From the NCBI GenBank assembly GCA_023245335.1, contig JAHFKK010000001.1, positions 619,282 through 683,281 on the forward strand: a stretch of 64,000 nucleotides of DNA, given 5' to 3'. A program made the position numbers and the translations under genes. Origin of the DNA: Candidatus Gottesmanbacteria bacterium (GTDB lineage Bacteria; Patescibacteriota; Microgenomatia; UBA10105; UBA927). Of the stretch, positions 1 through 16,203 are shown piece by piece. Every line of letters begins with the position of its first letter. Position 1 is the first letter of the stretch. The notes below the pieces were generated by a model. That model did no database searches, had not been told where the DNA came from, and worked only from the letters and a program-made list of their open reading frames with translations.

Positions 1-105
1 TTGGTCCGGGGCAGTCCGTCATCGTTATCAAATTTACGGATACGCCGATCCGCACGATCGGGAATCTTGCATCTGTCGCGACACTCGTCTTTATCATACT
101 GACCT

Positions 106-852
106 ATGGCAAAAAAAGAAAAACCAACCGTTAATATCGTCCTGCCGGTGTATAACGAAGAACAGGAGCTCGCGCAAAGCACGGTAGCGCTTGTGGGATT
201 TTTGCGGAAGCACCTCACCGACTTTGTGTGGCGCGTGACTATAGCTGATAACGCATCGACGGATAAGACGCTTATGGTAGCCAAACGTCTTGCGGCAAAG
301 GATTCACGCGTAACGTTCGTTCATCTTCTTCAGAAAGGGAGGGGACGCGCGGTCAAATACGTGTGGATGGGGGGCGATGATGATTATATGGCGTATATGG
401 ATATTGATTTATCGACGGATTTGAAACATCTCCCCCCGCTTCTTCATGCGCTGGAGCGCGGTTTTGATATCGCGATAGGCAGTCGAAATGTACGGGGAGC
501 TCGGGTGTACGGCCGGGGATTACTTCGAAACATTACGTCAAAAGGATATATCACGCTCATCAAATTATTTTTCTGGGTGCATTTTACGGATGCTCAATGC
601 GGATTTAAGGCAGTGACGCGTCGCGTCGTACAAGAGTTGCTCCCTGATATCAAAGACAACGTATGGTTTTTTGACTCCGAGCTTCTCATCGTCGGAGAGA
701 AACGCGGGTGGAGAATTTATGAAGAACCGGTTACATGGGTAGATAACCCCGGTTCGACGGTGAGAGTTATGAGGACCGCTATCGGAGATCTCAAGGGGCT
801 ATGGAAGCTCTGGATGACTCGTCCATGGAAGGGATATCATGCAAGACATTGA
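106..852 (+). CDS. GT2 glycosyltransferase, DPM1/GtrB/ArnC-like polyprenyl-phosphate sugar synthase
   Basis: 248 aa ORF. The N-terminus 'VNIVLPVYNEE' and the 'DNASTDKT' and 'DID' motifs are typical of GT-A fold family 2 dolichyl/undecaprenyl-phosphate glycosyltransferases. Confidence 0.8.
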   Translation: MAKKEKPTVNIVLPVYNEEQELAQSTVALVGFLRKHLTDFVWRVTIADNASTDKTLMVAKRLAAKDSRVTFVHLLQKGRGRAVKYVWMGGDDDYMAYMDIDLSTDLKHLPPLLHALERGFDIAIGSRNVRGARVYGRGLLRNITSKGYITLIKLFFWVHFTDAQCGFKAVTRRVVQELLPDIKDNVWFFDSELLIVGEKRGWRIYEEPVTWVDNPGSTVRVMRTAIGDLKGLWKLWMTRPWKGYHARH

Positions 853-2287
853 TATAGCAACACTAAAAAAGCGGTCGATCGTGGGTATCGTCGCTCTCAC
901 CACGCGAACCTTTCTCCTGCAGGTTATCGCATTTACCGCGACATTTTTGTTGACGTTACTTCTCACGCCGTCAATTTTCGGCGTCTATTATGTGGTGTCT
1001 GCAGTCATCTCCTTTTTGGGATATTTTTCTGATATCGGTCTTGCCGCAGCATTGGTTCAAAAAAAAGAGCCGTTGACCGATGAGGATCTCACGACGACAT
1101 TTACGATCCAACAAAGTCTCGTTGTCGTCCTTGTCATTATCTCGTTTGCGGGAAGCGCATGGGTCGCGCAGTTTTATCACCTCAACGACGCGGGATTATG
1201 GTTATTCCGAGCGCTTATCGTATCGTTTTTTCTGTCATCTCTCAAAACGATTCCCTCTATTCTTATGGAGCGGGAATTGCAGTTTGATAAGCTCGTGATA
1301 CCGACGATAGCAGAAACATTGGGATTTTATATCGTGACCGTCTATCTGGCGTGGCGGGGATTCGGCATCACAAGCTTTACCTGGGGAGTGCTTGCGCGCG
1401 GCGTCATCGGGCTCGTGAGTATCTATATCATCCGTCCATGGAGGATGTCTCTTGGGTTCTCAAAAGACGTACTGCACCGGTTACTGCGGTTCGGCATTCC
1501 GTTCCAGATGAATTCATTTTTGGCGCTTCTGAAAGACGATCTGTTTACTATCTTTTTGGGCAAGGTGTTGCCGTTTGCTCAAGTCGGCTATATCGGGTGG
1601 GCGAAGAAATGGGCGGAGGTGCCGCTGCGGCTTATCATGGATAGCATTATCCGGGTGACATTCCCGGCTTTTGCCCGCATGCAGCATGACGTGAATCTCC
1701 TTCGGAAAGCAATAGAAAAGACGATTTACGGACTTGCGCTTACGATGTTGCCGATTTCTATGGGTTTGATGTTCTTTGTGGGACCGATGGTGGAGATCAT
1801 TCCGAAGTACGCGAAGTGGAATCCTGCGCTCGTGTCATTTTACTTTTTTGTGGTGGCGGCAGCGATGGCCGGCATGACGACGCCATTAACCAATGCATTA
1901 AATGCGGTCGGAAAAATTAAAACAACGCTCTTTTTTATGGTACTTTGGACCGTCCTGACATGGACTCTTGCCGTAACCGGCATCAAACTTTTTGGGTATA
2001 ACGGATTTGCTATCGCGCTTTGTATCATATCGTTTACGATTGTGTGGGTTCTTCGCGAAGTCAAAAAGATCGTATCGTTTTCGTTTTGGGCACAAATTTG
2101 GAGTGCGGTATTGGGTATCGCCGTACAAGGAGCCTGGTATGCTCTGATTGTTCCGCATCTGCCGAAAAACGTACTTCTTCTAGGCGCGACGGGTTTCACC
2201 GGTGTTATACTTTATGGAGTGACGGTATATGTCGCGGATCGCGCACGCATACAGGGATTCATCATGTCACTAAGGAAACTATCATGA
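839..2287 (+). CDS. Polysaccharide biosynthesis protein / Wzx-like MOP-superfamily flippase
   Basis: 482 aa, hydrophobic throughout with about 12-14 predicted TM helices. It overlaps the upstream GT2 by 14 nt. Confidence 0.65.
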   Translation: MQDIDIATLKKRSIVGIVALTTRTFLLQVIAFTATFLLTLLLTPSIFGVYYVVSAVISFLGYFSDIGLAAALVQKKEPLTDEDLTTTFTIQQSLVVVLVIISFAGSAWVAQFYHLNDAGLWLFRALIVSFFLSSLKTIPSILMERELQFDKLVIPTIAETLGFYIVTVYLAWRGFGITSFTWGVLARGVIGLVSIYIIRPWRMSLGFSKDVLHRLLRFGIPFQMNSFLALLKDDLFTIFLGKVLPFAQVGYIGWAKKWAEVPLRLIMDSIIRVTFPAFARMQHDVNLLRKAIEKTIYGLALTMLPISMGLMFFVGPMVEIIPKYAKWNPALVSFYFFVVAAAMAGMTTPLTNALNAVGKIKTTLFFMVLWTVLTWTLAVTGIKLFGYNGFAIALCIISFTIVWVLREVKKIVSFSFWAQIWSAVLGIAVQGAWYALIVPHLPKNVLLLGATGFTGVILYGVTVYVADRARIQGFIMSLRKLS

Positions 2288-3192
2288 CCATAAGCGTTGT
2301 TATCTCAACCCATAACCGGTCAAAAAGCCTCGCGCAGACGTTGAGTTCGGTGAAGATACTTGCTCAAGAGATTATTGTTGTGGATTCGGGCTCGACAGAC
2401 GATACGGTAAAAGTGGCCAAGAAGTTTACCGCTCAGGTGTATACGAGACCCAACAACCTCATGCTGAATGTGAATAAGAATTTCGGGTTTACGAAGGCAA
2501 CTGGAGACTGGATACTCAATCTTGATGATGATGAGGAAGTGCCTCCAGAGCTCGCAAAAGAAATCCGAGAGAGCCTCCGATACGTGCCGTCCAGTGTCGT
2601 CGGATTTTGGATTCCCCGCAAAAATATTATTTTTGGGCGCTGGATCAAACATGGTCTGTGGTGGCCGGACCGGCAGCTACGGTTATTCCGGCGCGGAGAG
2701 GGAGCATTTCCTGAAAAACACGTGCACGAATACCTCGCAGTGACCGGAATCACCAAAACGTTGGATACGCCATATATCCATCACAACTACGATTCTATAG
2801 CGCAATATCTCGGGAAGATGGAGGAGATTTACACGGAAAGCGAAATTCAAAGATATACACTTGCGAATTATCAGGTTACATGGCATGACGCGATTCGATT
2901 TCCTGCGTCTGATTTCCTGAAAATTTACTTTGCGCAGTCAGGATACAAGGATGGCTTGCACGGGTTAGTTTTGGCACTTCTTCAGTCGTTTTATTCGTTT
3001 ATCATATTCGCGAAGCTTTGGGAGAAGAAACAATTTGCGGAGCAGGAGATTACACTTCGTGATGTCCGGCAGGAATTAACCCGGTCAGGTCGCGAACTCT
3101 CATACTGGGTGACCACAGCCCGGATGCACGATGCCTCAAATCCGCTCAAAAGATTTTGGTATAAACTGCTTCGGCGATATGGAAGATCCTAA
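2284..3192 (+). CDS. GT2 glycosyltransferase (WaaE-like C-terminal region)
   Basis: The ORF-track frame 2020..3192 has an internal Met 'MTISVVISTHNRSKSL' at 2284 directly after the upstream stop. It carries 'VVDSGSTDDT' and 'LDDDE' and a C-terminal 'HGLWWPDRQLRLFRR' motif. Confidence 0.75.
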   Translation: MTISVVISTHNRSKSLAQTLSSVKILAQEIIVVDSGSTDDTVKVAKKFTAQVYTRPNNLMLNVNKNFGFTKATGDWILNLDDDEEVPPELAKEIRESLRYVPSSVVGFWIPRKNIIFGRWIKHGLWWPDRQLRLFRRGEGAFPEKHVHEYLAVTGITKTLDTPYIHHNYDSIAQYLGKMEEIYTESEIQRYTLANYQVTWHDAIRFPASDFLKIYFAQSGYKDGLHGLVLALLQSFYSFIIFAKLWEKKQFAEQEITLRDVRQELTRSGRELSYWVTTARMHDASNPLKRFWYKLLRRYGRS

Positions 3193-3227
3193 CGCGTCAG
3201 TCATAAGATGTCCTCGCGGGGTATGAT

Positions 3228-4145
3228 ATGTCAAAAGTAACCATCGTCATAGTGAATTGGAACGGAATACGCGATACGATACGTTGCCTCGAGTCGATTG
3301 AGCGGATAAAAAAACAGGGAATCGATCTCACGACTGTCGTCGTTGATAACGGATCGACGGACGGTTCCGTCGCGACGCTAAAAAAGAAATTTGCCTGGGT
3401 CGTCATACTCGCATTGCCACGGAATTTGGGTTTCACCGGAGGGAATAATGCCGGTATGAGATACGCGATTTCTCATGGGGGTGATTTTGTGTGGCTCCTC
3501 AATAACGATACATTAGTTCATCCGGATGCGCTTCGGATTACTAAAGCGTTTGAGGATGAGGCTGTCGGGATTGCCGGGTCCAAGATCTACTTTGCCCCGG
3601 GGCACGAATATCACAGAGACCGGTATAAAGAGGCAGATAAGGGGAAGGTATTCTGGTATGCCGGGGGCCTCGTTGACTGGGATAATATGTACGCAAGTCA
3701 TAAAGGAGTAGATGAAGTGGATCATGGCCAATATGACGCGGTAGAAAGAACCCCATTTATCAGCGGTTGTTCCATGATGATACGAAGGGCGGTCATAGAA
3801 TCGATTGGATATCTTGATGAGAAGTTTTATCTGTATCTTGAGGACCTAGATTATTGTCTTCGCGCGAAGAAGCGAGGCTATGAGCTTGTATACTATCCGT
3901 CTTCGGTCATTTGGCACGTGAACGCAGGTTCGTCTGGAGGAGCCGGTAATCCTTTGCATGATTACTACATTACAAGAAACAGATTATTGGTGGGTTGGAG
4001 ATATGCGTCTCTCCGCACAAAACTGGCTCTTGTGCGGGAGGGTGCGAGATTTTTACTTGGTGCAAACGCTGTAAAACGGTGGGCGGTTTGGAACGCTCTG
4101 GTAGGAAAATGGGGAAAGCAATATGAGCCCAAAAAAATTACTTAG
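3228..4145 (+). CDS. GT2 glycosyltransferase (rhamnosyltransferase-like)
   Basis: 305 aa with 'VTIVIVNWNG', 'VVDNGSTDGS' and 'LEDLDYCLRA', which are classic GT2 motifs. Confidence 0.75.
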   Translation: MSKVTIVIVNWNGIRDTIRCLESIERIKKQGIDLTTVVVDNGSTDGSVATLKKKFAWVVILALPRNLGFTGGNNAGMRYAISHGGDFVWLLNNDTLVHPDALRITKAFEDEAVGIAGSKIYFAPGHEYHRDRYKEADKGKVFWYAGGLVDWDNMYASHKGVDEVDHGQYDAVERTPFISGCSMMIRRAVIESIGYLDEKFYLYLEDLDYCLRAKKRGYELVYYPSSVIWHVNAGSSGGAGNPLHDYYITRNRLLVGWRYASLRTKLALVREGARFLLGANAVKRWAVWNALVGKWGKQYEPKKIT

Positions 4146-4890
4146 TGCCATTATTATCGCGAAAAACGAATCATTACGTATCAGCACATGTGTTGATGCG
4201 CTTTCTTTCTGTGACGAGATACTCGTTGCGGATAACGGATCTACGGATGAGACCGCATCGGTCGCCCGTGCACACGGCGGTCTGGTCATTACGTTTCACG
4301 CTCAAGATTTCGCAGAACTCCGAAACGACGCGGCGAAGCGCGTGAAGGGCGACTGGATATTGTATGTCGATGCCGATGAGGTCATCGGAGAAACGCTTGC
4401 TCGCGCCATCCGTCACCTTGTCGATTCGTGGCAGCCCGGCGCACCGACGAGTTACCGTTTGGAACGTATTAATTATTATCTAGGTCAGCGGTGGCCGGGT
4501 AGTGAGCGGATGCTTAGGCTTTTTAAATGTACCGCTTTCAAAGGCTGGGAGGGAGAACTCCATGAAACTGCGCGTACTACAGGGCATGTTGGAGATCTTA
4601 CTGGAGAGTTGAGGCATGACACCCATCGGAATCTTGAGGAAATGGTTGAGAAAACAAATGAATGGTCAGAAACGGAAGCTGAACTTCGTTTAGCCGCTCA
4701 CCATCCGCGCATATCGTGGTGGCGGTTACTGAGGGTGACATTGACCGGATTTTGGAATTCATTTGTCGGTCAGGGAGGGTGGCGCGCAGGGACAGTCGGA
4801 TGGATAGAGAGCATATACCAGGGATTCAGTCTGTTCATCACGTACGCGAAGCTGTGGGAGTTACAGAGTCAAAAAAACAGTAAGTCGTAG
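4123..4890 (+). CDS. GT2 glycosyltransferase (WaaE-like); paralogue of 33865..34638
   Basis: 255 aa with 'LSAIIIAKNES', 'VADNGSTDET' and 'VDADE', plus a C-terminal 'RLFK' segment. It overlaps the upstream gene by 23 nt. Confidence 0.7.
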   Translation: MSPKKLLSAIIIAKNESLRISTCVDALSFCDEILVADNGSTDETASVARAHGGLVITFHAQDFAELRNDAAKRVKGDWILYVDADEVIGETLARAIRHLVDSWQPGAPTSYRLERINYYLGQRWPGSERMLRLFKCTAFKGWEGELHETARTTGHVGDLTGELRHDTHRNLEEMVEKTNEWSETEAELRLAAHHPRISWWRLLRVTLTGFWNSFVGQGGWRAGTVGWIESIYQGFSLFITYAKLWELQSQKNSKS

Positions 4891-4899
4891 AAAATAAGT

Positions 4900-7209
4900 A
4901 TGAAGTATCTAGTGCGGCATTGGGGGGTAGGATTTATTATTGCGGCCTGGCTTCTATTTGCTTCGCCGTATTTTGTGAAAGGTCTGGCCCCGTTTCCGTC
5001 CAAATTTCTAGTGACGTTTTTTGCCCCATGGAGCACTACCTACGCTATGCCGGTAAAAAATGGAGCTATGCCGGACGTCATAACCCAAATATATCCGTGG
5101 AAACGCGTTACTATCGCAAGCTGGAAGTCGGGGCAGGTGCCGTTATGGAATCCGTTTAGCTTTGCCGGCACTGCGCAGGCGGGCAATTACCAGAGCGCGG
5201 TATTTTCTCCGGTTAATGCATTGTTCTTTATATTGCCGGAGATCCCCGCGTGGAGCATCATGATACTTCTGCAACCACTTCTTGCGGGGCTTTTCATGTA
5301 TCTATTCCTTCGTAGTATTTCCCGGTCTCCGGAGGGGAGCGTCATGGGGAGCCTTGCGTTTATGTTTTGCGGATTTATCGTCGTTTGGATGGCATACGGG
5401 ACTTTAGGCTACGCAGCGCTATTCCTGCCACTTGCTTTGTATGCGGTAAACGTCTACGAACAAGGAAAACATCCGTGGGCCGGTCCGCTACTCGCCCTGT
5501 CTATTGGCCTGTCGCTCGTTTCCGGGCACTTCCAAATCAGCCTTTATGTGTTGCTGTTTACGGTGTTATATCTTCTGTTTCGTTCGTTCCAGGCAAAGAA
5601 GGGGATCCGGATTTTTTCCGCAGTATGGTATATAGGTCTGGGATTATTGTTTGCCGCACCCCAGATACTGCCGTCGCTTTCGACATATCTTGCCGCAGTG
5701 CGAAGCAGCATCTTTCAGAAGGGTGAGGTTATACCTTGGCAGTATCTCGTGACGATATTTTCTCCTGATTTTTATGGGAATCCTGTGACGAGAAACGACT
5801 GGTTTGGTCATTATGCAGAATGGGCTATGTTTATCGGTGTTGCACCGCTTATAGCAGTTATCGCTCTGTGGTTTCTTCCGCGAAAAGACAACGCCGTAAA
5901 GTTTTTTAGTCTGACTGCAATTATTCTTTTCCTCTTTGCGTTGCCGACACCGCTCACTGATCTCTTATATGCTGCCCGAATTCCCGTCCTGTCCACGAGT
6001 GCCGCATCGCGCATTATCATTCTTGTAAGTTTCGCATTCGCGGCACTTTCAGCGTACGGAATCGATGCGATACGTACGTCCTGGGAAAAGGACTCGTATA
6101 AACGGATCCTGGGGGCTGTCCTGACAGTCTGCTTTTCCATAGTCGCCGTCTGGGGAGCGCTCAAGTTATTGAAGCCGTTTCCTGCGGAAAAGCTTTCGGT
6201 TGCGATGCATAATACACTCCTGCCCACCTTCATCGCGGTTGTTGCTGTTGCCGCTATTGTGTTGGGGTATTTCGTGCCGAAACGATGGCGCCGGATCTTG
6301 CCGTACGCCCTCATTCTCATAGCGCTTGTCGATCTCCTGCGGTTTGCGGGGAAATGGATGCCGTTTGACCCCAAAGAATATGTGTACCCCAACGTGAACG
6401 TATTGCGGTATGTGTCATCGGTAATAGCCCCAACACACGCACGGGTGAATGGAAACATCGGTAATGAGGTAGCCTCAGCCTTTGGTATACCGGTTTTGGA
6501 AGGCTATGACGCCGTTTATCAGGCGCGGTATGGCAAGTTTATAAGCAGCGCGACCGATGGAAAGATCGCAGTTCTCAATCGCTCCGTCGTACAGCTTGAT
6601 AAACAGGGGAAATACACCGAGGATATACTACGGCTTTTAGGGGTACGGTACCTCATGCATAAAGTAAGTGATGGCAGGAATACATGGGCGTATCCGTTTT
6701 GGAATTTTCCGTCGTATCGTTCGATCTGGAAAGACGCGTCCTATGAAGTTTTTGAAAACGATGCCGCCTACCCCCGCGCATATCTGGCATCGAGCTACAC
6801 TGTGGCGACGCAGGAATTCTCGATTCTTACGAAGTTATTTGCGAAGGATATCGATAGACGGGAGACATTGGTATTGGAAGAAGATCCTGTCATAAAGCCG
6901 GCTACTGGTGCCGGCACGGCTACGATTACGACCTACGAGCCGACACGCGTCGCCGTACGGGTCGTAAGCCAAGCGCCAAAGCTTTTGTTTCTTTCCGATG
7001 TATATGACCCGGGTTGGCATGCGGCAGTTGATGGGAAAGCCGCACCTCTCTATCGGGCGGATTATGATTTTCGTGCCGTATCAGTACCTGCCGGCACGCA
7101 TACGGTAACCATGTGGTATTGGCCGATAGAAGAGACAATTGGGTTCATAGCCGCCGGATTTGCTACACTATGGTGTATAGGAGTATTGTTTAGACGAAAA
7201 CGCATATGA
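4900..7209 (+). CDS. YfhO-family GT-C membrane glycosyltransferase (paralogue 1)
   Basis: 769 aa. The N-terminal half is polytopic and is followed by a large extracytoplasmic domain. The C-terminus 'DPGWHAAVDGKAAPLYRADYDFRAVSVPAGTHTVTMWYWP' and a terminal TM anchor are characteristic of YfhO. Confidence 0.75.
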   Translation: MKYLVRHWGVGFIIAAWLLFASPYFVKGLAPFPSKFLVTFFAPWSTTYAMPVKNGAMPDVITQIYPWKRVTIASWKSGQVPLWNPFSFAGTAQAGNYQSAVFSPVNALFFILPEIPAWSIMILLQPLLAGLFMYLFLRSISRSPEGSVMGSLAFMFCGFIVVWMAYGTLGYAALFLPLALYAVNVYEQGKHPWAGPLLALSIGLSLVSGHFQISLYVLLFTVLYLLFRSFQAKKGIRIFSAVWYIGLGLLFAAPQILPSLSTYLAAVRSSIFQKGEVIPWQYLVTIFSPDFYGNPVTRNDWFGHYAEWAMFIGVAPLIAVIALWFLPRKDNAVKFFSLTAIILFLFALPTPLTDLLYAARIPVLSTSAASRIIILVSFAFAALSAYGIDAIRTSWEKDSYKRILGAVLTVCFSIVAVWGALKLLKPFPAEKLSVAMHNTLLPTFIAVVAVAAIVLGYFVPKRWRRILPYALILIALVDLLRFAGKWMPFDPKEYVYPNVNVLRYVSSVIAPTHARVNGNIGNEVASAFGIPVLEGYDAVYQARYGKFISSATDGKIAVLNRSVVQLDKQGKYTEDILRLLGVRYLMHKVSDGRNTWAYPFWNFPSYRSIWKDASYEVFENDAAYPRAYLASSYTVATQEFSILTKLFAKDIDRRETLVLEEDPVIKPATGAGTATITTYEPTRVAVRVVSQAPKLLFLSDVYDPGWHAAVDGKAAPLYRADYDFRAVSVPAGTHTVTMWYWPIEETIGFIAAGFATLWCIGVLFRRKRI

Positions 7210-8252
7210 AGATCGGCTTATATAATCCATATTATGACGGGTTAGGAGGAGGCGAACGGTATACTCTCACGCTCGCAAGCCATTGGTCACGCGTTCATGA
7301 TGTGTCGCTTTTTTGGGACGACCCGAATATTCTCGCCGTTTCGGAATCAAGGTTCGGTCTTGATCTTTCGCGTGTTCGTGTGACACCGAATGTATTTAAA
7401 AACGGGAATATATTTGAAAAACTCTGGGCCTCACGTAAGTACGACCTCATATTTTTCTTGAGCGACGGAAGCATTCCGATGACGCTCGCCCGGCACAACA
7501 TATTGCATTTCCAGGTGCCGTTTCCGTCTATTCTTACCGACCCGTGGAAAATGGGAAGATATGACGCGGTTATATGTAATTCTCAATTCACCAAAAACGC
7601 CATAGATGCGGAGGTAGGGCTTAAGGCAATGGTCATCTACCCGCCCGTGCCGAGCATAGGGCTACCGAAACAGATTAAGAAAAAGAAACGGATACTTTCC
7701 GTAGGAAGATTCACGAATTATTTTCAGGCAAAGAAGCAGGAAGTGCTCATAGAAGCATTTAAGTCTGTGTATCAGCACAGCACGTTTGCCGATTGGGAGC
7801 TTGTGTTTGCCGGGGGTCTCATGAATTCGGATGAAGAATATTTCGCTAAGCTCAAGACACTTGCCGCCGGTATGCCGATACATTTTCTCCCCAACGTAAC
7901 GAACGATGAATTGACGAAACTGTACCAGACGTCCACGATTTTTTGGCACGCGGCAGGATTCGGAGAAACGAACGCCGTACTTCTCGAGCACTTCGGTATT
8001 GCAACAGTCGAAGCCATGAGCGCGGGTGCGGTTCCTTTGGTTTTTGCAGCGGGCGGACAGCCGGAGATCGTTACCGACGGCGTGAGCGGTGAACTATGGG
8101 CAACGATGAAGGAGCTGGTAGATGGTACTATTTCGCTCGTGACTGACCAGGCAAGACTTTTGAGGCTTCGGAAAGCCGCTATGCTGAGGTCGCAGGCGTT
8201 TAGCATTGAGCGATTCACCCGCGCATTTGACGGACTTATCGCCGGTTGGTAA
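7206..8252 (+). CDS. GT4 (group 1) glycosyltransferase
   Basis: 348 aa with the 'EHFGIATVEAMSAGAVPL' E-x7-E-type GT-B motif. It has an ATGA overlap with the upstream YfhO. Confidence 0.75.
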   Translation: MKIGLYNPYYDGLGGGERYTLTLASHWSRVHDVSLFWDDPNILAVSESRFGLDLSRVRVTPNVFKNGNIFEKLWASRKYDLIFFLSDGSIPMTLARHNILHFQVPFPSILTDPWKMGRYDAVICNSQFTKNAIDAEVGLKAMVIYPPVPSIGLPKQIKKKKRILSVGRFTNYFQAKKQEVLIEAFKSVYQHSTFADWELVFAGGLMNSDEEYFAKLKTLAAGMPIHFLPNVTNDELTKLYQTSTIFWHAAGFGETNAVLLEHFGIATVEAMSAGAVPLVFAAGGQPEIVTDGVSGELWATMKELVDGTISLVTDQARLLRLRKAAMLRSQAFSIERFTRAFDGLIAGW

Positions 8253-8262
8253 TACCACCCAT

Positions 8263-10530
8263 ATGAAGCGAATTGGACTCACCGGATGGCCCCTTCTCCT
8301 CATGACTTTTATACTCGTCACCGTAGTCTTTTTTTATCAGACGTTTTCTAAAGGCTATTTACCTATTCCGACGGACGCGCTTATCGGGTTATATCACCCG
8401 TGGCGGGATGTATATGCGAAGGAGTATCCCAGAGGAGTACCGTTTAAGAATTTTCTTATCACCGATCCCATTCGTCAACAGATACCATGGCGTAAGCTCG
8501 TTATAGATACCTGGAAATCCGGACATACTCCGGGATGGAATCCATATACGTTCGTCGGCGTACCGCTGAACGCAAATATACAGGCAGCACCTTTTTACGC
8601 TCTAAATATACTTTTTTTCTTGTTTACTTTCCCTATAGCATGGACACTCCTTGTCATGGCACAGCCTTTACTCGCCGGACTGTTCCTTTTTTTATACCTT
8701 CGTAATCGACGCTTGAGTCACGTAGCTTCGTTTGTCGGAGGTATAGTGTGGGCGTTTAGCGGATTCTCCGTTGCGTGGATGACGTGGGGCACGATTATGC
8801 AGACGGCTCTTTGGGCGCCTCTCATTCTTCTCTCTTTAGATAATCTTTTGCTTCCGAAAGCGCATAAGCCAGAAAAATCACGGATTATCCTTTGGATGAT
8901 CATTCTGGCCGGAGCGATTGCGATGACAGTCACAGCAGGTCACATTCAAGTAGCCTTATATACAATGACGCTTGCAGCCTTTTATGTCTTCTGGAGTGTG
9001 AAGTCGGAAGGTCGTACTATGGGTGCGCGATGGGTGATTGTTGCTGTCGGAGGAGCCATACTTCTTACTGCGGTACAGTGGATTCCACTCCTGCAATTTT
9101 TGCCGCAAACCGGGAGAGCGGGAGCGGCTGATGCCTGGAAGGTAGCAGGCTGGTTCCTGCCGTGGCAGAACCTTGTTCAATTTGTGGCGCCTGACTTTTT
9201 CGGCAATCCGGCGACGTTAAACTACTGGGGTGTGTGGAACTACGGTGAATTTATAGGCTATATAGGTATCTTGCCGTTGGTTTTTGCTCTTTCTGCGGTG
9301 TTTCTTTCCGGGATACCCATATTTTTTTCCGTCGTCCTATGCGTGAGTTTCTTGTTTATGACTCCAAATCCCGTTTCCGGCATTCCGTTTGTGTTGCATA
9401 TACCATTTCTCTCGATATTGCAGCCGACGCGGCTCATGGCAGTCGTTGACCTGAGTCTCGCGGTACTTGCCGCATACGGACTGGAAGCGATGACAAAACA
9501 CAAAAGTCGCGCGTACGGCGCCTTTGCCGTTGTTGGTTTAGTCATTCTCGGATCGTGGGGAGTCGTTTTGGCAGGAAAATTTATCTCGCACGATCCGACG
9601 GTGTCGGGTAATTTACTCATCACCAGGCACAACCTTGTTTTGCCGACGCTTATATTTGCCGTGGGTCTCCTTTGGTATGCCATTCGGAACTATAGGAACG
9701 TCGTACGATGGCGATTGGCTGGAGAAGTGGCGCTTATCCTGATTGTCATTTTTGATCTTTTTCGTTTCGGATGGAAGTTTACGCCGTTTACTCCGCAAGC
9801 GTATTTTTTCCCGACGACACAAACGATTCAGTATCTACAGCACATACCCAAGCCGTTTCGGGTGATGAGTCTGGATGACCGTATCCTTCCTCCGAACGCC
9901 GGGAGCTATTATGGCATCGAGACCATAGAAGGGTACGATCCAATTGCGCCCAGACTCTACGAAGATTTTCTCGTGGCCTCCGAGCGTGGGAAAGCAGACA
10001 CGAGTCGTCCGACAGGCTTTAACCGGATATATACGGCCCACAACATAGACTCGCCGTTATTACCGTATCTTAACGTCCGTTATGTATTGTCGCTTACCGA
10101 CGTATCAAGGCCTTTTCTTACCAAAGTATATGAGGAAGGAGAGGTCAGAGTCTACGAGTATAAAAAAGCGTTGCCGCGTATATATCTTGCAGAAAGTCTT
10201 ATGCCGAGGAAGAATTCGCAAGACGTGCTACAAACGCTTTTTACCGCATCACCGGGAGCGGTAGGGGTATATGATCCGCTTGTGCCGATCCAGTCACTCC
10301 CGCTTGCCGCAGAGGAAGGCGCGAGGATCACATCCTATCAACCAAACGAAATTCATGTGCGCGTGACGGCGGCGTATCCGAGAGTGTTGATTCTTCTCAA
10401 TGAGTTCGACGCGCATTGGGCTGCAACGATTGATAATGGCGGACCGTTTACCGTGTTTCCGGTGAATTACCTGTTTATGGGCGTGAACATTCCCATGGGT
10501 TCTCATACGGTCGTTTTCACGTACCGATAA
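8263..10530 (+). CDS. YfhO-family GT-C membrane glycosyltransferase (paralogue 2)
   Basis: The track ORF starts at 8206. The Met at 8263 ('MKRIGLTGWPLLL') follows the upstream stop and matches the N-terminal layout of the other YfhO paralogues. The C-terminus 'NEFDAHWAATIDNG...GSHTVVFTY' is the YfhO C-terminal module. Confidence 0.72.
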   Translation: MKRIGLTGWPLLLMTFILVTVVFFYQTFSKGYLPIPTDALIGLYHPWRDVYAKEYPRGVPFKNFLITDPIRQQIPWRKLVIDTWKSGHTPGWNPYTFVGVPLNANIQAAPFYALNILFFLFTFPIAWTLLVMAQPLLAGLFLFLYLRNRRLSHVASFVGGIVWAFSGFSVAWMTWGTIMQTALWAPLILLSLDNLLLPKAHKPEKSRIILWMIILAGAIAMTVTAGHIQVALYTMTLAAFYVFWSVKSEGRTMGARWVIVAVGGAILLTAVQWIPLLQFLPQTGRAGAADAWKVAGWFLPWQNLVQFVAPDFFGNPATLNYWGVWNYGEFIGYIGILPLVFALSAVFLSGIPIFFSVVLCVSFLFMTPNPVSGIPFVLHIPFLSILQPTRLMAVVDLSLAVLAAYGLEAMTKHKSRAYGAFAVVGLVILGSWGVVLAGKFISHDPTVSGNLLITRHNLVLPTLIFAVGLLWYAIRNYRNVVRWRLAGEVALILIVIFDLFRFGWKFTPFTPQAYFFPTTQTIQYLQHIPKPFRVMSLDDRILPPNAGSYYGIETIEGYDPIAPRLYEDFLVASERGKADTSRPTGFNRIYTAHNIDSPLLPYLNVRYVLSLTDVSRPFLTKVYEEGEVRVYEYKKALPRIYLAESLMPRKNSQDVLQTLFTASPGAVGVYDPLVPIQSLPLAAEEGARITSYQPNEIHVRVTAAYPRVLILLNEFDAHWAATIDNGGPFTVFPVNYLFMGVNIPMGSHTVVFTYR

Positions 10531-10543
10531 GGAATGAGATACG

Positions 10544-11518
10544 TTGCTAAGACGACGTATCCATGCTATTGTAAAATACGTTTCTATGGCAAATTCGGCA
10601 AAGAAATCATTTACGGTCAGCGTTATCCTTCCCAACTGGAACGGTGAGCATTTGCTCGCCAAAAACTTACCCAGCGTTTTGGAAGCGGCGCCGACGGCTG
10701 AAATTATTGTGGCCGACGACGCCTCCAAAGATGCATCGGTAGAGCTCCTCCGTAAGAAATTTCCTAGCGTCATCGTTATCGAGAATAAAAGACAACGGGG
10801 TTTTGCAGGAAACGTAAATAGCGGTGTCGCTAGAGCGAAAGGTGACATAGTCGTGCTTCTCAATACCGATGTGCGCCCCAACAAAGGTTTTTTGGAACCG
10901 CTCCTTGCCCGTTTTCTGGATCCGCATGTTGCGGCAGTCGGGTGTCTTGAGGAAAGTCATGACCTGGGGGGGGTCATCCTGCGGGGAAGAGGTGTCGCGC
11001 GGTGGATTAAAGGATATTTTATTCATACAAAGGGCGAGGTCACCAAAAGCGATACTGCTTGGGTAGCCGGAGGGAGCAGTGCGTTTAGAAAAAGCGTATG
11101 GAATGAGTTGGGGGGCATGGATACGATATATAATCCGTTTTATTGGGAAGACATAGACCTTTCATACCAGATGCAGAAAGCCGGACTGCGGATCGTATTT
11201 GAGAGGAAAAGCGTCGTTGGTCACTACCACGAGGAGGGGAAAATTAAAACATCCTTTACGCCCTCCGACATAACGCGTATTGCGTACCGGAATCAATTCA
11301 TATTTCTTTGGAAAAACATATCGGATCCCGGATTGTGGGTCGCTCACTGTGTATGGACGCCGATACGTCTGGTGCAGGCCCTCATACAGGGCGACTTTCT
11401 CATGCTGCAGGGGTATTTTGAGGCAATTATGAAACTACCTGCAGTCTGGCCTTCCCGCAAAAGAGCTTCCCGGCATTGGCGGTTGACCGATGCCGCGACT
11501 CTTCCTCAATCCGACTAA
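10544..11518 (+). CDS. GT2 glycosyltransferase
   Basis: 324 aa with 'FTVSVILPNWNGEHLL', 'VADDASKDAS' and 'WEDIDLSYQ'. An alternative start is the Met at 10586. Confidence 0.7.
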   Translation: MLRRRIHAIVKYVSMANSAKKSFTVSVILPNWNGEHLLAKNLPSVLEAAPTAEIIVADDASKDASVELLRKKFPSVIVIENKRQRGFAGNVNSGVARAKGDIVVLLNTDVRPNKGFLEPLLARFLDPHVAAVGCLEESHDLGGVILRGRGVARWIKGYFIHTKGEVTKSDTAWVAGGSSAFRKSVWNELGGMDTIYNPFYWEDIDLSYQMQKAGLRIVFERKSVVGHYHEEGKIKTSFTPSDITRIAYRNQFIFLWKNISDPGLWVAHCVWTPIRLVQALIQGDFLMLQGYFEAIMKLPAVWPSRKRASRHWRLTDAATLPQSD

Positions 11519-11521
11519 CCT

Positions 11522-12385
11522 ATGCAATGCCTTCTTTGTCGCATACCAACTGAGAAATATTTGTACAAAAACGGCTATTGGATCTACCGGTGCCCCCGGT
11601 GCCACTTGGGAGAGACGAACCTCAAAAAAGATTACTCACAGTTCGTGAAGGAATTTTATTCTCAAGGCTACTATGAGGGAGATCCCACACGAAGCGCTTA
11701 CGCGAGCTATGAAGCGGATAAGCCTCTTATTGTCCGGAATATGCATAAGTTTCTTTCTGTAATTCGCGCGAAGAAGTCCACAGGGAAACTACTGGATGTC
11801 GGATGCGCGTTTGGGTACTTCGTGGAGCTTGCATTGTCGAAAGGCTATGATGCATACGGATTTGACGCGTCGCATTTTGCTGCTGGAGAAGCAGGTGCGC
11901 TTGTCGGAAAGTCCCGTATCAAGGAAGGCACAGTCCAGTCAGTATCGTATCCGAAAAATTCGTTTGACATTATCACGCTTTTTGACGTCTTTGAACATTT
12001 ACAAGATCCGCTTGCCGACATGAAAAAATTGGCGGGATTCCTCAAGAAAGATGGGGTCATTCTGATCGCGACGGGAGACACGCGGAGTATCGCCGCCAAG
12101 GTTTTTCAGAGGCGTTGGACATTTTATATACCGCCGCAACATATCTTTTTCTTTCACAGAAAAAATGTCAGGGAACTGTTGAAAGCCGCAGGTCTCAGGC
12201 CCCGCTCGTGGTTTCGGGTGGGGAAATGGTTGAGCTTGGGGTATGTCCTGCATCTTGCCCGCACGACTGGCGAGAGTCCATTCGCACGCTTTCTTTATCA
12301 GGTTATAAAAGACACACCGTTTGCCCGGTTTCCGCTATACGTACCGATGAAAGATAATATGGTGATTGAAGTCAGTAAGATGTAG
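11522..12385 (+). CDS. Class I SAM-dependent methyltransferase with N-terminal Cys4 zinc ribbon
   Basis: 287 aa with 'CLLCR...CPRCHL' (CxxC...CxxC) followed by SAM motif I 'LLDVGCAFGYF'. The domain order resembles the sugar C/O-methyltransferase family. Confidence 0.7.
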   Translation: MQCLLCRIPTEKYLYKNGYWIYRCPRCHLGETNLKKDYSQFVKEFYSQGYYEGDPTRSAYASYEADKPLIVRNMHKFLSVIRAKKSTGKLLDVGCAFGYFVELALSKGYDAYGFDASHFAAGEAGALVGKSRIKEGTVQSVSYPKNSFDIITLFDVFEHLQDPLADMKKLAGFLKKDGVILIATGDTRSIAAKVFQRRWTFYIPPQHIFFFHRKNVRELLKAAGLRPRSWFRVGKWLSLGYVLHLARTTGESPFARFLYQVIKDTPFARFPLYVPMKDNMVIEVSKM

Positions 12386-12400
12386 TATAAGGGAGATCGT

Positions 12401-14131
12401 ATGAAATTATTCTTCAAACGTCACTGGAAGACGATTCTCATTTTCGGCTGCTTATTTGTACTTTTTTTCCTCAATGCATTTCATGAGAAGTATCCGGACG
12501 AATTCGACAGTATCGTCGGAGGCAGATATATAGACATGGGGCTTTTACAGTACCGCGATTGGTTTCAGCATCATCAGCCCGGTGCGTACGTGATGGCTTC
12601 ACTTATCCTGCCGTTTACGGGTATATCCTTTGTGAGGTTCCGGGTGGGTTGGGCTTTGGCGATTTTTGTCATTAACGCACTCGGGTATGCCATGCTAAGT
12701 AAGCGTTTTCCGGCGAAGAACCTGACGTTTTACCTCGTCATGCTTTTTACCATAGCTCTTGCCGGTACCTATTTCTGGTGGCAGATGTTACTCGCCGATT
12801 CTCTCGCGGCATATCTTCTGCTCCCCGCGTTCGCGCTACTTTTCATGAAAGATTATTACGAGGAGAAGTTTGATCGGGTCGATCTTATGTTGGTAGGCGG
12901 ATTTGCGTTTCTTTCCTGGTTCACTTCCATGACATATATCTATATTGTGGCCGCGATTTCGGCATATGCGATTTTCCTTTATGCAAGCCGCCGCGCCCGT
13001 CGGACTTCCTTTTGGAAAACTGCATTGACCGGCACCGGAATTCTCGCGGTTCCTTATGTCCTATTCGCCTTGTGGTTACTCGTAACAGGGAGCCTCAAGG
13101 ATTGGTATTTTGCCTCCGTGTACTACAACTCGGCATATTATATCTATAACTACCCGCATGCACCCGGACAAATGGTCAATCCCATACGTTACGCAGTCGT
13201 TATATTTAATGAGTTTGTGAATAATTATATGCTCGCTCTCGGCGGGGTCACGGGGTTGCCGATTACCAATCCCGGTCAGGTGACATTTGCGTTTTCAAGC
13301 TTTGCCGCAATTCTTTTGGTCATATTCACGGGCCGCTGGACATTCCTGTTTCCGCTTCTTATTACACTCGTCTATTCCAATGCACGGAGCAACCCGCAGT
13401 CCATCCGGGAAACGGATTATCAGTCCGCGGTCTACGTGATGACGTCCATGTTCAACGGGCTATTTACCCTTTCGGTGCTCAAAGAATTGGTCGATAGCAA
13501 GAAGCTAAAGGTAAGCGGGACGATCCTTGCGTCGGCTCTTATGTTGCTTCTCACGATCTATTGGATCGCCACTCCTATGTTTTATGCGCAGCGCATGATG
13601 CAGAAATATTATGACAAATATATGGGGAAGGCGCCTCTTATCTATGACCGTCCGCAGGTCACCAACTATGTCAATGCCATAATCGATAAAGGAGACATGG
13701 CGTGGGTCGGACCATTTGCATTTGAGGAGCTTTTCTATCTCAAAACGACGAGGATTCCGTCCAAGTATCATTGGTTTCTGCAGTTTGCGCAGGACACGAA
13801 GATCGGACCGGGATTAGTCGCCGACATGACGAAAAACCTCCCGAAAGTAATTGTTTTCCAAAGGAATTATGCCCCATGGGGAGGAGACGCTTCTACGTTT
13901 AACAGTTTTTTCCGGAAGTTTTTGGATCAGTATTATTTCCGCGTTTTCACGTATAATGAAACCTTGCCGGACATAAACTACAAATGGAAGATCGGGAATA
14001 CGATAAATTATGATCTGGATGGAGACTTTAACTTCGACAAACGATATCAGAAACAGATTATTGATAAGCTTCTCTCCCTGGGTTACATCGAAGCCGTGCC
14101 AAAGCACAAAGAGATTACGAACAAGAAGTAA
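12401..14131 (+). CDS. Integral membrane protein, putative GT-C-like glycosyltransferase (family unassigned)
   Basis: 576 aa. 'YPDEFDS' lies in the first loop after TM1. About 11 TM helices are followed by a roughly 200 aa soluble C-terminal domain. A Shine-Dalgarno-like 'aagggag' precedes the start. Confidence 0.5.
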   Translation: MKLFFKRHWKTILIFGCLFVLFFLNAFHEKYPDEFDSIVGGRYIDMGLLQYRDWFQHHQPGAYVMASLILPFTGISFVRFRVGWALAIFVINALGYAMLSKRFPAKNLTFYLVMLFTIALAGTYFWWQMLLADSLAAYLLLPAFALLFMKDYYEEKFDRVDLMLVGGFAFLSWFTSMTYIYIVAAISAYAIFLYASRRARRTSFWKTALTGTGILAVPYVLFALWLLVTGSLKDWYFASVYYNSAYYIYNYPHAPGQMVNPIRYAVVIFNEFVNNYMLALGGVTGLPITNPGQVTFAFSSFAAILLVIFTGRWTFLFPLLITLVYSNARSNPQSIRETDYQSAVYVMTSMFNGLFTLSVLKELVDSKKLKVSGTILASALMLLLTIYWIATPMFYAQRMMQKYYDKYMGKAPLIYDRPQVTNYVNAIIDKGDMAWVGPFAFEELFYLKTTRIPSKYHWFLQFAQDTKIGPGLVADMTKNLPKVIVFQRNYAPWGGDASTFNSFFRKFLDQYYFRVFTYNETLPDINYKWKIGNTINYDLDGDFNFDKRYQKQIIDKLLSLGYIEAVPKHKEITNKK

Positions 14132-14300
14132 GGATACGCCGGCTGTCACCGTCTCTTTCCATGCATTCTAGGTTTTGGCTGAAATCCCTTCCACGTCAAC
14201 GCGATTTTGTTCGTCCCTTGCTCACCAAAAGTTCCGAATAAGGATGCAGTTACGATAAATTTTCGATCAATTTCGTCCTGTGTTAACCCTCGTTTTTGAG

Positions 14301-14534
14301 CTACCGTGAGAAAATGGGCGTACTGGGGATCAGCCGGCGATAGATTTCGGCTGTCCCGGTATCGACGACCTCATCCAAATGTTCTAGGCTGCCGCGCTCT
14401 CTATTCAGCAAGTCAATTGCTTTTAGTGAAGCCTGGTTCAGGCTTTCGTGCGCATATTTTCGGGTTTCGTTTTCTTCGACCATATCGTCGCAGTATATCG
14501 CTGTAGTGTCAATTATATAATTTCGCTGAGACAA
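14301..14534 (-). pseudogene. PIN-domain (VapC-like) toxin relic, apparently frameshifted
   Basis: 77 aa ORF 'MSQRNYIIDTTAIY...' resembles a PIN N-terminus ('x-I-I-D-T-x-A-I'). About 50 further codons ('AQKRGLTQDEIDRKF...') continue in another frame down to about 14150, which would restore a typical roughly 130 aa PIN length. No antitoxin ORF is present. Confidence 0.3.
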
Positions 14535-16203
14535 ATACTTCCTTTACCGTGCTTCCGTTTATATCATCCAATTTCTGGAATTCTTTCTTGTGTTGCATAT
14601 ATTCGGGAGAAGCGAGAATGAATAGCGTGTTTCCGCCATGAGGAAGGCCTTTGAAATCAAATGACGGATCCATAAGCTTCATTCCGTTGGTATCCCAACT
14701 GGCTGACGTGAAGTAATATTTGCCGAAGTGCTCCCGGTTGCCCCCGCTTTGATAAACCGCCGGATCAATTCCACCCCAGTATAGTAGGAAGATATACGGC
14801 CTCCAGTAATAGCCGGAGATGTAGATACGGTCGTACTTATGTTCGTTTGCCCGGACATACGCGACCATCTGTTTGTTGCCGTCTCCAAATGAGAGAGCGT
14901 TATTCGTGGGGTTATTTACGAAGTAGGCGTAATGGAATTTTGGAAATGACAGCAGGAACCAGATGACCAAAGCGGTAAGAAGAACGGCAACAACCGGTTT
15001 GACGCGGGATTTTTTGGGAAGATACTCAAGTAAATATATAATTCCGAATCCGGACAGTACGGCAAATACGGGAGCGGCGATGAGCGTGCGGAGCGTATTC
15101 GGCTGATTCAGGCTGAAAGCGCCGGGGAAGAATCCGGTCACGAGCCATACAAGCAATACATACATAGAAAAAGGTGATAACGAGAACAGAAGGAGTAATC
15201 CGAGCGGCAACAACATCATGTCAAACGGATATAATGCGCCATAGGTGCCGGTGCCGGTCACAAATAGATTGTGAGGGTCGATATTCTTCCAATAATTTTC
15301 TAGGATCGTCTCAAGAAGTGCGATTCTTCTGTTGTAAATAATTTTATTGATGATGGTCGGGTGCACGGCCATGATATTTGTGTACGCTTCTTTTCGGTTA
15401 ATAAAGTTTTGATCGTTGACTACGCTTACGGTATTTATCCTCTGCCAACCGCCCGGCGAGAGCATCTCGCGTCCCATGGGAAAAAATACCGTGAGACATA
15501 TAGCTAGGGTAACGACTGATGTTTTCCACTCCTTTGTTACCGTTTTCCACTGAGTCACAAGGTAGAGAAGCGCCATAAACGGTATCACTAGTCTGACGGA
15601 GTAGTAGAAATATAATGAGGTGACATAAAAAAGTCCGGCGAGGAGGATTTCCCGGTAGTTTCTGCGGCTCCGGAGTAAAAAGTATGTACCCAGCATGAAC
15701 CAGAACACAGCGCCGTTACTTTCAAATAGCTGGCGTGAGAAGTTTATATGCCATGGCTGCAGAGCAAACATAAGGGTCGGGATAAGTGCGGCGTCGAATT
15801 CGCCAAGCTTGAGATGTCGTCTGTCACCCAAGAGTTCGGCCGCTAAGACGTACATAACGATAATTGCAAGAATGCCAAAGAGCGCGGATGGGAGGCGGGC
15901 GGCTAACTCGGTTCGGCCGAACAATGCGACGAAAGGGACGGTAGTGTAGACCATACCCGGCAATTTGTAATCGTCAAACGAACGGAACAGCAAAGGATAC
16001 GGTGCGCCGTACTCATCCTTGCCGGTTTTGAGTATTGAATACGCGTTGTACGCGATTGCCGTTTCGTCATGGGAGAGGGATGGCGGTATGGTTGTCAGCC
16101 GGTCAAAACGGAGATAGATGCCGATAATAAGAATCAGAGCAAACAAAATTATGGTAAAAGTCCTTTGAGAAGCGCCACTTAGGGGTTTACTCGTGTGTTT
16201 CAT
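14509..16203 (-). CDS. GT39/PMT-like (COG1807) GT-C glycosyltransferase, paralogue A
   Basis: 564 aa with the first-loop motif 'SHDETAIAYNAYSILKTGKDEYG...DDYKLPGMVYTTVPF' and 'RLPSALFGIL'. A conserved C-terminal soluble domain follows. Confidence 0.75.
   Translation of the reverse strand: MKHTSKPLSGASQRTFTIILFALILIIGIYLRFDRLTTIPPSLSHDETAIAYNAYSILKTGKDEYGAPYPLLFRSFDDYKLPGMVYTTVPFVALFGRTELAARLPSALFGILAIIVMYVLAAELLGDRRHLKLGEFDAALIPTLMFALQPWHINFSRQLFESNGAVFWFMLGTYFLLRSRRNYREILLAGLFYVTSLYFYYSVRLVIPFMALLYLVTQWKTVTKEWKTSVVTLAICLTVFFPMGREMLSPGGWQRINTVSVVNDQNFINRKEAYTNIMAVHPTIINKIIYNRRIALLETILENYWKNIDPHNLFVTGTGTYGALYPFDMMLLPLGLLLLFSLSPFSMYVLLVWLVTGFFPGAFSLNQPNTLRTLIAAPVFAVLSGFGIIYLLEYLPKKSRVKPVVAVLLTALVIWFLLSFPKFHYAYFVNNPTNNALSFGDGNKQMVAYVRANEHKYDRIYISGYYWRPYIFLLYWGGIDPAVYQSGGNREHFGKYYFTSASWDTNGMKLMDPSFDFKGLPHGGNTLFILASPEYMQHKKEFQKLDDINGSTVKEVFVSAKLYN

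Follow-up and report, generated by a model that had tools for sequence, protein, structure and literature searches.

A conserved run of glycosyltransferase genes encloses two YfhO paralogues

The window analyzed here, a 64,000-nucleotide stretch of contig JAHFKK010000001.1 from a Candidatus Gottesmanbacteria genome (GenBank assembly GCA_023245335.1), begins with a module of eight plus-strand genes (positions 106–10530) that encode glycosyltransferases and a flippase and include two members of the YfhO family. The list of open reading frames (ORFs) and Pfam matches place all eight genes where the initial annotation, made from the letters alone, had put them. The module opens with g01 (106–852), a DPM1-like glycosyltransferase of family GT2 (248 residues) and candidate polyprenyl-phosphate sugar synthase, followed by g02 (839–2287), a MOP-family (Wzx-like) flippase of 482 residues (Polysacc_synt_3, 8e-54). 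Three further GT2 genes come next: g03 (2284–3192), whose product carries one C-terminal hydrophobic segment and is a paralogue of g05 and g24, g04 (3228–4145), and g05 (4123–4890). The GT-C glycosyltransferase YfhO-1 (g06, 4900–7209; PF09586, 8e-26, 91 bits) and its ancient paralogue YfhO-2 (g08, 8263–10530; 5e-18, 65 bits), both above the family cut-off of 28.5 bits, flank a cytoplasmic GT4 enzyme (g07, 7206–8252; Glycos_transf_1, Glyco_transf_4).

The genes are tightly packed, with intergenic gaps of at most 35 nt and otherwise overlaps. Thus, g01 and g02 share 14 nt, the start of g07 overlaps the stop of g06 by 4 nt, and the ATG of g03 at 2284 overlaps the stop of g02 as ATGA, while the longest ORF of g03 starts with a TTG at 2020. 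Public gene calls start YfhO-1 at 4912, four codons inside the ORF that opens at 4900. A 1.218-Mb public contig and a 311-kb ENA metagenome contig each encode a 100% identical YfhO-1.

The unit extends beyond the interval 106–10530 to which it had been assigned. On the upstream side, it starts with two PTPS-related GT-C genes, which are themselves preceded by a PMT_2 gene. The PTPS_related gene next to the module (PF10131, 555 residues) lies at 8362–10029 of the upstream record L083, in which position 9896 corresponds to window position 1; its 3′ end occupies 1–134 of the plus strand, where the frame stops, and overlaps the 5′ end of g01. On the downstream side, the co-directional run continues through g09 (10544–11518), a GT2 that also scores above the Glyco_transf_21 cut-off and closes the class-wide conserved core, g10 (11522–12385), an S-adenosylmethionine-dependent methyltransferase that according to Pfam and synteny is kept mainly in a Gottesmanbacteria-like subset, and g11 (12401–14131), a polytopic protein of 576 residues at which the run ends. 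The genes of the original interval stand as listed, while the unit as a whole reaches from the upstream PTPS-like pair to 14131.

A scan of one genome per species, in which ORFs were classified against the window proteins, yielded 80 loci with a recurrent order: two PTPS-like genes, the DPM1-like GT2, the MOP flippase, three GT2 genes, YfhO-1, GT4, YfhO-2, and a final GT2. Among the loci whose contigs extend far enough to be evaluated, the succession YfhO-1, GT4, YfhO-2 is found in 65 of 65, the five genes upstream of YfhO-1 are kept in 61 of 68, and the PTPS-like pair precedes them in 64 of 65. The core genes are 40–87% identical across the 80 loci, while the genes downstream of the core differ. 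Since orthologues at this level of identity occur in the same order in 80 other genomes, the module ORFs are genuine genes rather than chance frames. Named homologues belong to Candidatus Gottesmanbacteria, Woesebacteria, and Levybacteria as well as to Patescibacteria and Microgenomates groups. Judged by this synteny, a longer predicted operon, with the module as its core, is retained almost unchanged across the Microgenomates.

YfhO-1 and YfhO-2 are ancient paralogues with a GT-C fold

The AlphaFold2 (AF2) model of YfhO-1 (predicted local distance difference test, pLDDT, 87.6; predicted TM-score, pTM, 0.89) displays a GT-C fold, in which a polytopic N-terminal domain is followed by an extracytoplasmic β-rich C-terminal domain and a last transmembrane (TM) helix. 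Our search found no solved YfhO structure. In Foldseek, mycobacterial AftD is the best match (1e-8), followed by ArnT, AglB, STT3, EmbA/B/C, and PglB. Residue D59 follows TM1 in the first extracytoplasmic loop and is invariant among 55 homologues; this aspartate or its equivalent is 100% conserved in the YfhO-1 and YfhO-2 clades alike. In contrast, D300, E523, Y166, and R298 mark consistent differences between the two clades. Based on the shared D59 and the clade-specific residues, both paralogues look catalytically competent and specialized.

Aligned over the full length, YfhO-1 and YfhO-2 share 31% identity. A third paralogue, YfhO-3 (g14, 17837–20191, minus strand; Pfam YfhO, 87 bits), matches YfhO-1 with a phmmer E-value of 1e-110 and lies in a divergent block that also contains two PMT_2 genes and one PTPS-like GT-C gene. 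In a neighbour-joining tree of 165 YfhO proteins from the candidate phyla radiation (CPR) and two non-CPR outgroups, the YfhO-2 orthologues group in a pure clade (65 proteins), those of YfhO-1 in another (81 of 84), and YfhO-3 in a third clade. Separate pure clades indicate that the duplication giving rise to YfhO-1 and YfhO-2 predates the divergence of these lineages. The outgroups came from a plasmid tblastn search, which returned only Bacteroidota and Microvirga YfhO proteins. To YfhO proteins of Bacteroidota and Alphaproteobacteria, the CPR proteins are 16–23% identical, and they form three CPR-only clades. The only NCBIfam match of YfhO-1 is the PgfM2 equivalog model, at 24 bits against a cut-off of 1500. 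Neither this failed equivalog nor the CPR-only clades, in a tree with two non-CPR outgroups, indicate orthology to a characterized YfhO.

On a Parabacteroides distasonis plasmid (L085:467-3756), a Bacteroidota member of the YfhO family has a GT2 gene immediately in front of it and an oppositely oriented glycosyltransferase gene behind it, which represents another GT2-YfhO pairing outside the Firmicutes.

At the downstream end of the run, g11 matches no Pfam family and has homologues in Patescibacteria only. Its AF2 model (pLDDT 93.3) likewise shows a GT-C fold, with STT3A, PglB, ArnT, and DPY19 as the best Foldseek matches, and its loop 1 carries an invariant cluster of H28, Y31, D33, E34, and D36 (D33-E34-x-D36). 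The protein was also considered as a missing Wzy polymerase or ligase; this assignment was rejected, as the model is a GT-C nearest to STT3, PglB, and ArnT.

g01 resembles polyprenyl-phosphate sugar synthases and adjoins the gene of a Wzx-type flippase

Used as a single query, g01 finds the Pyrococcus Dol-P-Man synthase PfDPMS (5mlz) as its best PDB match (1e-13). The DXD motif of g01 (MDIDLS) aligns with MDADLQ of PfDPMS, and AIGSRNV aligns with AIGSRYV. A profile built from 45 orthologues and run against PDB sequences again places PfDPMS first (5.6e-25); together with three ArnC and three GtrB entries it makes up the top seven, with matches spanning the whole catalytic domain and a gap of four logs before generic GT2 enzymes. 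The best NCBIfam models for g01 are PgfS, Dol-P-hexose transferase, ArnC, PpgS, and AglJ, all scoring far under their cut-offs (PgfS: 49 bits versus 500). Further, the GSR motif is confined to five DPM1-like GT2s (GSR or GSK in the g28/g30 group) encoded in the surrounding island. With no TM segment, g01 is like DPM1 or GacI and unlike CsbB. On these alignments, g01 groups with the polyprenyl-phosphate sugar synthases and is a candidate for this activity.

The flippase g02 has 12 hydrophobic segments; its NCBIfam matches, all under cut-off, are the MOP flippase PRK10459 (1e-37), an O-glycosylation flippase, TuaB, and MurJ. Among the remaining enzymes, g04 is related to GlfT2-type galactofuranosyltransferases, its best solved relatives in a PDB search (9dtp, 4e-11), and matches rhamnosyltransferase, GlfT1, and MftF models of NCBIfam weakly. 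For the other cytoplasmic glycosyltransferases, such comparisons were uninformative.

In the established three-component scheme, a GT-A enzyme makes an undecaprenyl-phosphate (C55-P) sugar, a flippase moves it, and the sugar is then passed on by a GT-C enzyme that carries a DxD-type motif in one of its extracellular loops (PMC8035078). The initial annotation had likened the module to the CsbB-GtcA-YfhO form of this scheme. The likeness holds for the enzyme classes, a polyprenyl-phosphate-sugar synthase-like GT2 and a YfhO GT-C, but does not extend to the flippase and is not supported for teichoic acids. CsbB-GtcA-YfhO of B. subtilis and S. aureus and Lmo2550-GtcA-Lmo1079 of L. monocytogenes likewise join a YfhO GT-C to a GT2 of the DPM1/GtrB class. 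In contrast to these systems, the GT2 here has no membrane anchor, the module contains no GtrA-type gene, and the YfhO proteins are paired ancient paralogues. Thus, a predicted GT-A and a GT-C with an acidic loop residue are present, and the small GtrA flippase of CsbB-type systems is not. The statement that the flippase is Wzx-type and not GtrA-type was correct: g02 is a MOP protein, and no window gene matches GtrA (PF04138), while GtrA_DPMS_TM occurs only as a GT2 fusion further upstream.

A Wzx-type flippase in this position is not an unusual trait, since the scheme allows a cytoplasmic GT-A to be combined with such a flippase, a combination that has been suggested for S. pyogenes GacI/J/K/L (PMC8035078). 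GacI/J/K/L, which serves the GlcNAc side chain on the group A rhamnose polysaccharide, resembles the module in its unanchored GT-A, its Wzx-type flippase, its GT-C acting outside, and its location in a polysaccharide cluster with cytoplasmic glycosyltransferases (PMC8035078). Unlike GacI/J/K/L, the module lacks a small membrane partner of the GacJ type, encodes four to five GT-Cs instead of one, which are YfhO and PTPS-related proteins, and lies in another phylum; we identified neither an ABC exporter nor rhamnan genes.

Single-sugar decoration of wall or lipoteichoic acid by a CsbB-GtcA-YfhO-type system would agree with the enzyme classes (a GT-A synthase-like protein, a flippase candidate, and a YfhO GT-C) and is the best-known role of YfhO proteins (PMC8035078). 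It is nevertheless very improbable here. The host belongs to the CPR (Microgenomates) and is no Firmicute, and one paper infers that in Patescibacteria a rhamnose wall polysaccharide takes the place of teichoic acids (PMC11809585). No gene of the tag/tar/ltaS type (tagB/F, tarI/J/L, ltaS, tagO, tagGH) was found among the approximately 57 genes of the ~74-kb island, and neither this stretch nor the ten largest clusters of flanking genes at the 80 loci contain teichoic or LytR-CpsA-Psr (LCP) genes. Moreover, the module lacks a GtrA-type gene, its YfhO proteins share the low identity given above with non-CPR members, and the operon holds far more enzymes than such a system needs. The teichoic-acid framing is therefore not supported. 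The annotated gene order was borne out, and its interpretation in part.

The operon lies in a GT-C-rich island

The operon is part of an island of at least 74 kb, in which two MOP flippases and five DPM1-like GT2s accompany about 20 enzymes with a GT-C fold. The entire window is taken up by glycan machinery. By sequence family, the window alone contains 14 GT-C proteins (three YfhO, seven PMT_2, two GT87, and two PTPS-related), to which g11, GT-C by fold, and three more polytopic GT-C candidates can be added. The 9.9 kb upstream carry five further GT-C genes and two DPM1-like GT2s; genes of the GT87/MptA_B family are present in the island, and the rest of the window holds many GT2, GT4, epimerase, and methyltransferase genes. 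A second trio at 37994–40750 (plus strand) consists of a DPM1-like GT2 (g28), a MOP flippase (g29), and another DPM1-like GT2 (g30). The three GT2s g01, g28, and g30 group together, and g28 finds the AglJ model as its best match (5e-27). In contrast, the flippase g29 is unrelated in sequence to g02. Since each of these unrelated MOP proteins is directly preceded by a DPM1-like GT2 (g01-g02 and g28-g29), the adjacency of synthase and flippase occurs twice, independently.

With g02, the module contains the Wzx flippase of a Wzx/Wzy pathway; the initiator, the Wzy polymerase, and the regulator or ligase are not found here and may be encoded elsewhere in the genome. Specifically, no priming phosphoglycosyltransferase (PGT), Wzy polymerase, chain-length regulator, or LCP ligase was matched in the window or in the upstream stretch, the genes of which have no Pfam match to Bac_transf, Glycos_transf_4 (MraY/WecA), Wzz, or LytR_cpsA_psr. 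The sole Wzy trace is a Wzy_C match with an E-value of 0.013 on a PTPS-like protein, and Pfam with relaxed thresholds gave no usable match for the orphan membrane proteins. Flanking genes left unclassified at the 80 loci were clustered, and in Pfam the ten largest clusters yielded further PMT_2, DUF2079, a phosphodiesterase, and a methyltransferase, and no PGT, LCP, Wzy, or teichoic-acid enzyme.

In Haloferax, AglJ starts a dolichyl-phosphate-linked glycan that is extended by other cytoplasmic enzymes, and the Agl system (AglJ, AglG/I/E, AglB, AglS) thus combines DPM1-like priming, cytoplasmic extension, and transfer by a GT-C outside. By analogy, the DPM1-like GT2 would prime polyprenyl monophosphate, the cytoplasmic GT2s and the GT4 would lengthen the chain on this lipid, the MOP protein would flip the oligosaccharide, and YfhO or g11 would transfer or polymerize it en bloc. 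Priming of this kind would account for the consistent lack of PGT and Wzy. PGT genes are consistently absent beside the module, the DPM1-like GT2 always directly precedes the MOP gene, and no Wzy-type polymerase was found. The match of g28 to the AglJ model points in the same direction, as do the oligosaccharyltransferases that occur among the fold matches of YfhO-1 and lead those of g11. However, all YfhO enzymes characterized so far are believed to work with a polyprenyl-phosphate monosaccharide (PMC8035078, PMC12041528), and the best fold match of YfhO-1, AftD, is a single-sugar transferase. Further, the system at hand is bacterial, contains no sequence homologue of AglB/STT3, and offers in g11 a protein that is oligosaccharyltransferase-like by fold only, while a conventional priming enzyme may have its gene at another site of the genome. 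We therefore regard block transfer as improbable.

A protein glycosylation operon as architectural precedent

The flanking of a cytoplasmic GT4 by two YfhO genes had been annotated as an arrangement not described before. In the literature searched, we indeed did not find the exact layout, i.e., YfhO-GT4-YfhO together with a MOP flippase and four more GT2s, but the S. mutans pgfS-pgfM1-pgfE-pgfM2 operon provides a precedent. It likewise starts with a GT-A, followed by two YfhO-domain GT-C genes that flank the gene of a cytoplasmic enzyme (PMC5856776, PMC12041528). PgfM1 and PgfM2 are non-redundant, and they seem to work one after the other (PMC5856776). In contrast to the module, the intervening pgf gene encodes an epimerase instead of a GT4, and the operon has neither a MOP flippase nor extra GT2s.

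This precedent suggests protein O-glycosylation of the Pgf/PgtC2 type, in which g01 would make the polyprenyl-phosphate sugar, YfhO-1 would attach the sugar to Ser/Thr-rich surface, S-layer, or pilus proteins, and YfhO-2 would extend it. In streptococci, the YfhO-family enzymes PgtC2, PgfM1, and PgfM2 attach sugars to disordered, Ser/Thr-rich parts of membrane and wall proteins (PMC12041528), and in the pgf operon, with its two YfhO-type paralogues around a cytoplasmic-enzyme gene, deletion of pgfM2 leads to an intermediate-sized product (PMC5856776). PgfS is the top NCBIfam model for g01 and PgfM2 the sole one for YfhO-1, both very weak, and the fold of g11 is nearest to the oligosaccharyltransferases STT3 and PglB. 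Compared with Pgf-type operons, the gene architecture matches, but the PgfS model is weak and no window protein contains a Ser/Thr-rich stretch. While pgf and S. pyogenes GtrB/PgtC2 have acceptor proteins encoded alongside, the module has no candidate gene for an acceptor linked to it. Moreover, single-sugar decoration of a protein does not need five cytoplasmic glycosyltransferases and a Wzx-like flippase, and the NCBIfam scores reach 24–49 bits versus cut-offs of 500–1500. On balance, protein O-glycosylation is a less probable explanation, albeit one to be taken seriously.

A proposed model: assembly of a probable envelope glycan

The analysis shows which genes are present, their enzyme classes and folds, the conservation of catalytic-type residues, the synteny, and how old the YfhO duplication is. 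Beyond the original annotation, the context now includes the conservation of five cytoplasmic glycosyltransferases and, within the operon itself, four or five genes for GT-Cs. A fixed core with variable flanks, these five glycosyltransferases, and the large number of GT-C and DPM1-like genes in the island are in keeping with a conserved glycan that is decorated differently from lineage to lineage. We propose, at about even confidence, that the lineage-wide operon assembles a conserved envelope glycan, most likely not a teichoic acid.

In this model, soluble g01 would charge polyprenyl phosphate with a sugar at the cytoplasmic face, and the three GT2s, the GT4, and g09 would assemble a lipid-linked glycan, which the MOP/Wzx-like g02 would carry over the membrane. 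On the outer side, the PTPS-related pair, both YfhO proteins of the module, and, in this genome, g11 would add polyprenyl-phosphate-sugar-derived residues to the glycan, with YfhO-1 and YfhO-2 as two active, non-redundant enzymes that might work sequentially or as a heteromer. The other GT-C and DPM1-like genes of the island would supply lineage-specific elaboration. We infer the donor, the direction of the steps, the acceptor, and the lipid-linked cargo of the MOP protein.

The proposed logic resembles that of the streptococcal system for side chains on rhamnose polysaccharide and that of mycobacterial arabinogalactan and lipoarabinomannan assembly (Ppm1 or decaprenylphosphoryl arabinose (DPA) donors, PimE, MptA/B, AftA-D, EmbA-C), where many GT-Cs lengthen a glycan outside with polyprenyl-phosphate sugars after cytoplasmic GT2 and GT4 steps. 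The likeness to the mycobacterial system includes AftD as best fold match of YfhO-1, the GT87/MptA_B genes, and the GlfT2-like g04. It is one of logic only, without orthology, and no genes of the DPA pathway were seen.

Several points weigh against an envelope glycan assembled in this way. Family membership does not favour a glycan acceptor, since characterized YfhO enzymes also glycosylate proteins (PMC12041528). Sugar specificity is not readable from the sequences, and all NCBIfam matches lie far below their cut-offs. The operon status derives entirely from spacing and synteny, and a promoter and terminator scan of positions 1–15000, with fewer sites than in shuffled sequence, was uninformative. 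As no initiating PGT, Wzy-type polymerase, or LCP ligase was found in the 74-kb island or among the ten largest clusters of genes beside the module at the 80 loci, the proposed lipid-linked glycan has no identified initiator or attachment enzyme here. Finally, the literature searched gave no experimental data on any CPR homologue and no paper combining YfhO with Patescibacteria.

A more far-reaching version of the envelope-glycan model would be a class-wide, undescribed glycopolymer route with DPM1-like priming, extension by GT2 and GT4 enzymes, coupled export by the MOP protein, and paired GT-Cs that polymerize or transfer the chain without Wzy, PGT, or LCP. The pairs would be YfhO-1/YfhO-2 and the two PTPS-related proteins, possibly heterodimers by analogy to EmbA-EmbB or Pmt1-Pmt2. 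We consider this route unlikely; if it existed, about 6% of a 1.2-Mb genome would be given to an extracytoplasmic glycan factory.

CPR bacteria, or Patescibacteria, have tiny genomes and are unable to make many of their building blocks. Against this background, the retention of at least 11 operon genes in an unvarying order, within an island that encodes about 20 GT-Cs and takes up about 6% of the 1.2-Mb genome, points to a conserved surface glycan, which is probably central to wall building or host contact of these epibionts or symbionts. What is new is a conserved, so far undescribed operon in an uncultured class, with an unusually heavy investment in GT-Cs for a genome of this size. The YfhO family is thereby extended well beyond the Firmicutes, and the ancient, always paired duplication of YfhO is a possible model for the division of labour between GT-C paralogues.

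Further features of the island and of module-bearing genomes

Upstream of the window, 9.6 kb away (L083:319-3050), a GT2 is fused to a GtrA_DPMS_TM domain (369 residues, with the DADLSHDP of DPM synthases) and directly followed by a PMT_2 GT-C. This fusion and its PMT_2 neighbour form a compact canonical set of synthase, flippase, and GT-C, after which a DPM1-like GT2 is paired with an MptA_B/GT87 gene. Among the GT-C genes of the same stretch lies a minus-strand gene (L083:4921-5142) for a PQ-loop/MtN3 (SemiSWEET-like) protein of 73 residues (Pfam 1e-5 and 4e-5), which might transport sugars or assist with lipid-linked ones.

Between 44000 and 57000, the G+C content falls to 0.36–0.39 compared with ~0.49 elsewhere. 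This block, which contains epimerases, methyltransferases, GT4s, and a membrane protein of 1175 residues, looks like an acquired or fast-changing glycan cassette. Two related large proteins are encoded at 51614–55141 and 55691–57751 (phmmer 1e-13); their sole Pfam match is a weak one to DUF5667, and in both a polytopic N-terminus is joined to a big extracytoplasmic domain and then a TM helix at the C-terminus, as in YfhO or AftD. Further downstream, the N-terminal half of a GT4 (59840–60454, 204 residues) lies directly before a complete GT4 (60458–61588) and may represent a split or truncated gene.

Many of the module-bearing records are titled "uncultured Gammaproteobacteria bacterium" and one "Pacearchaeota archaeon", labels that look like placeholders or mis-binning. 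A protein of 388 residues with 8 TM segments and no Pfam match is encoded at 34656–35822 of the window, and its homologue sits beside YfhO-1 inside the module in several Levybacteria-type genomes (L054, L068, L074, L077, L079, L080, and L082).

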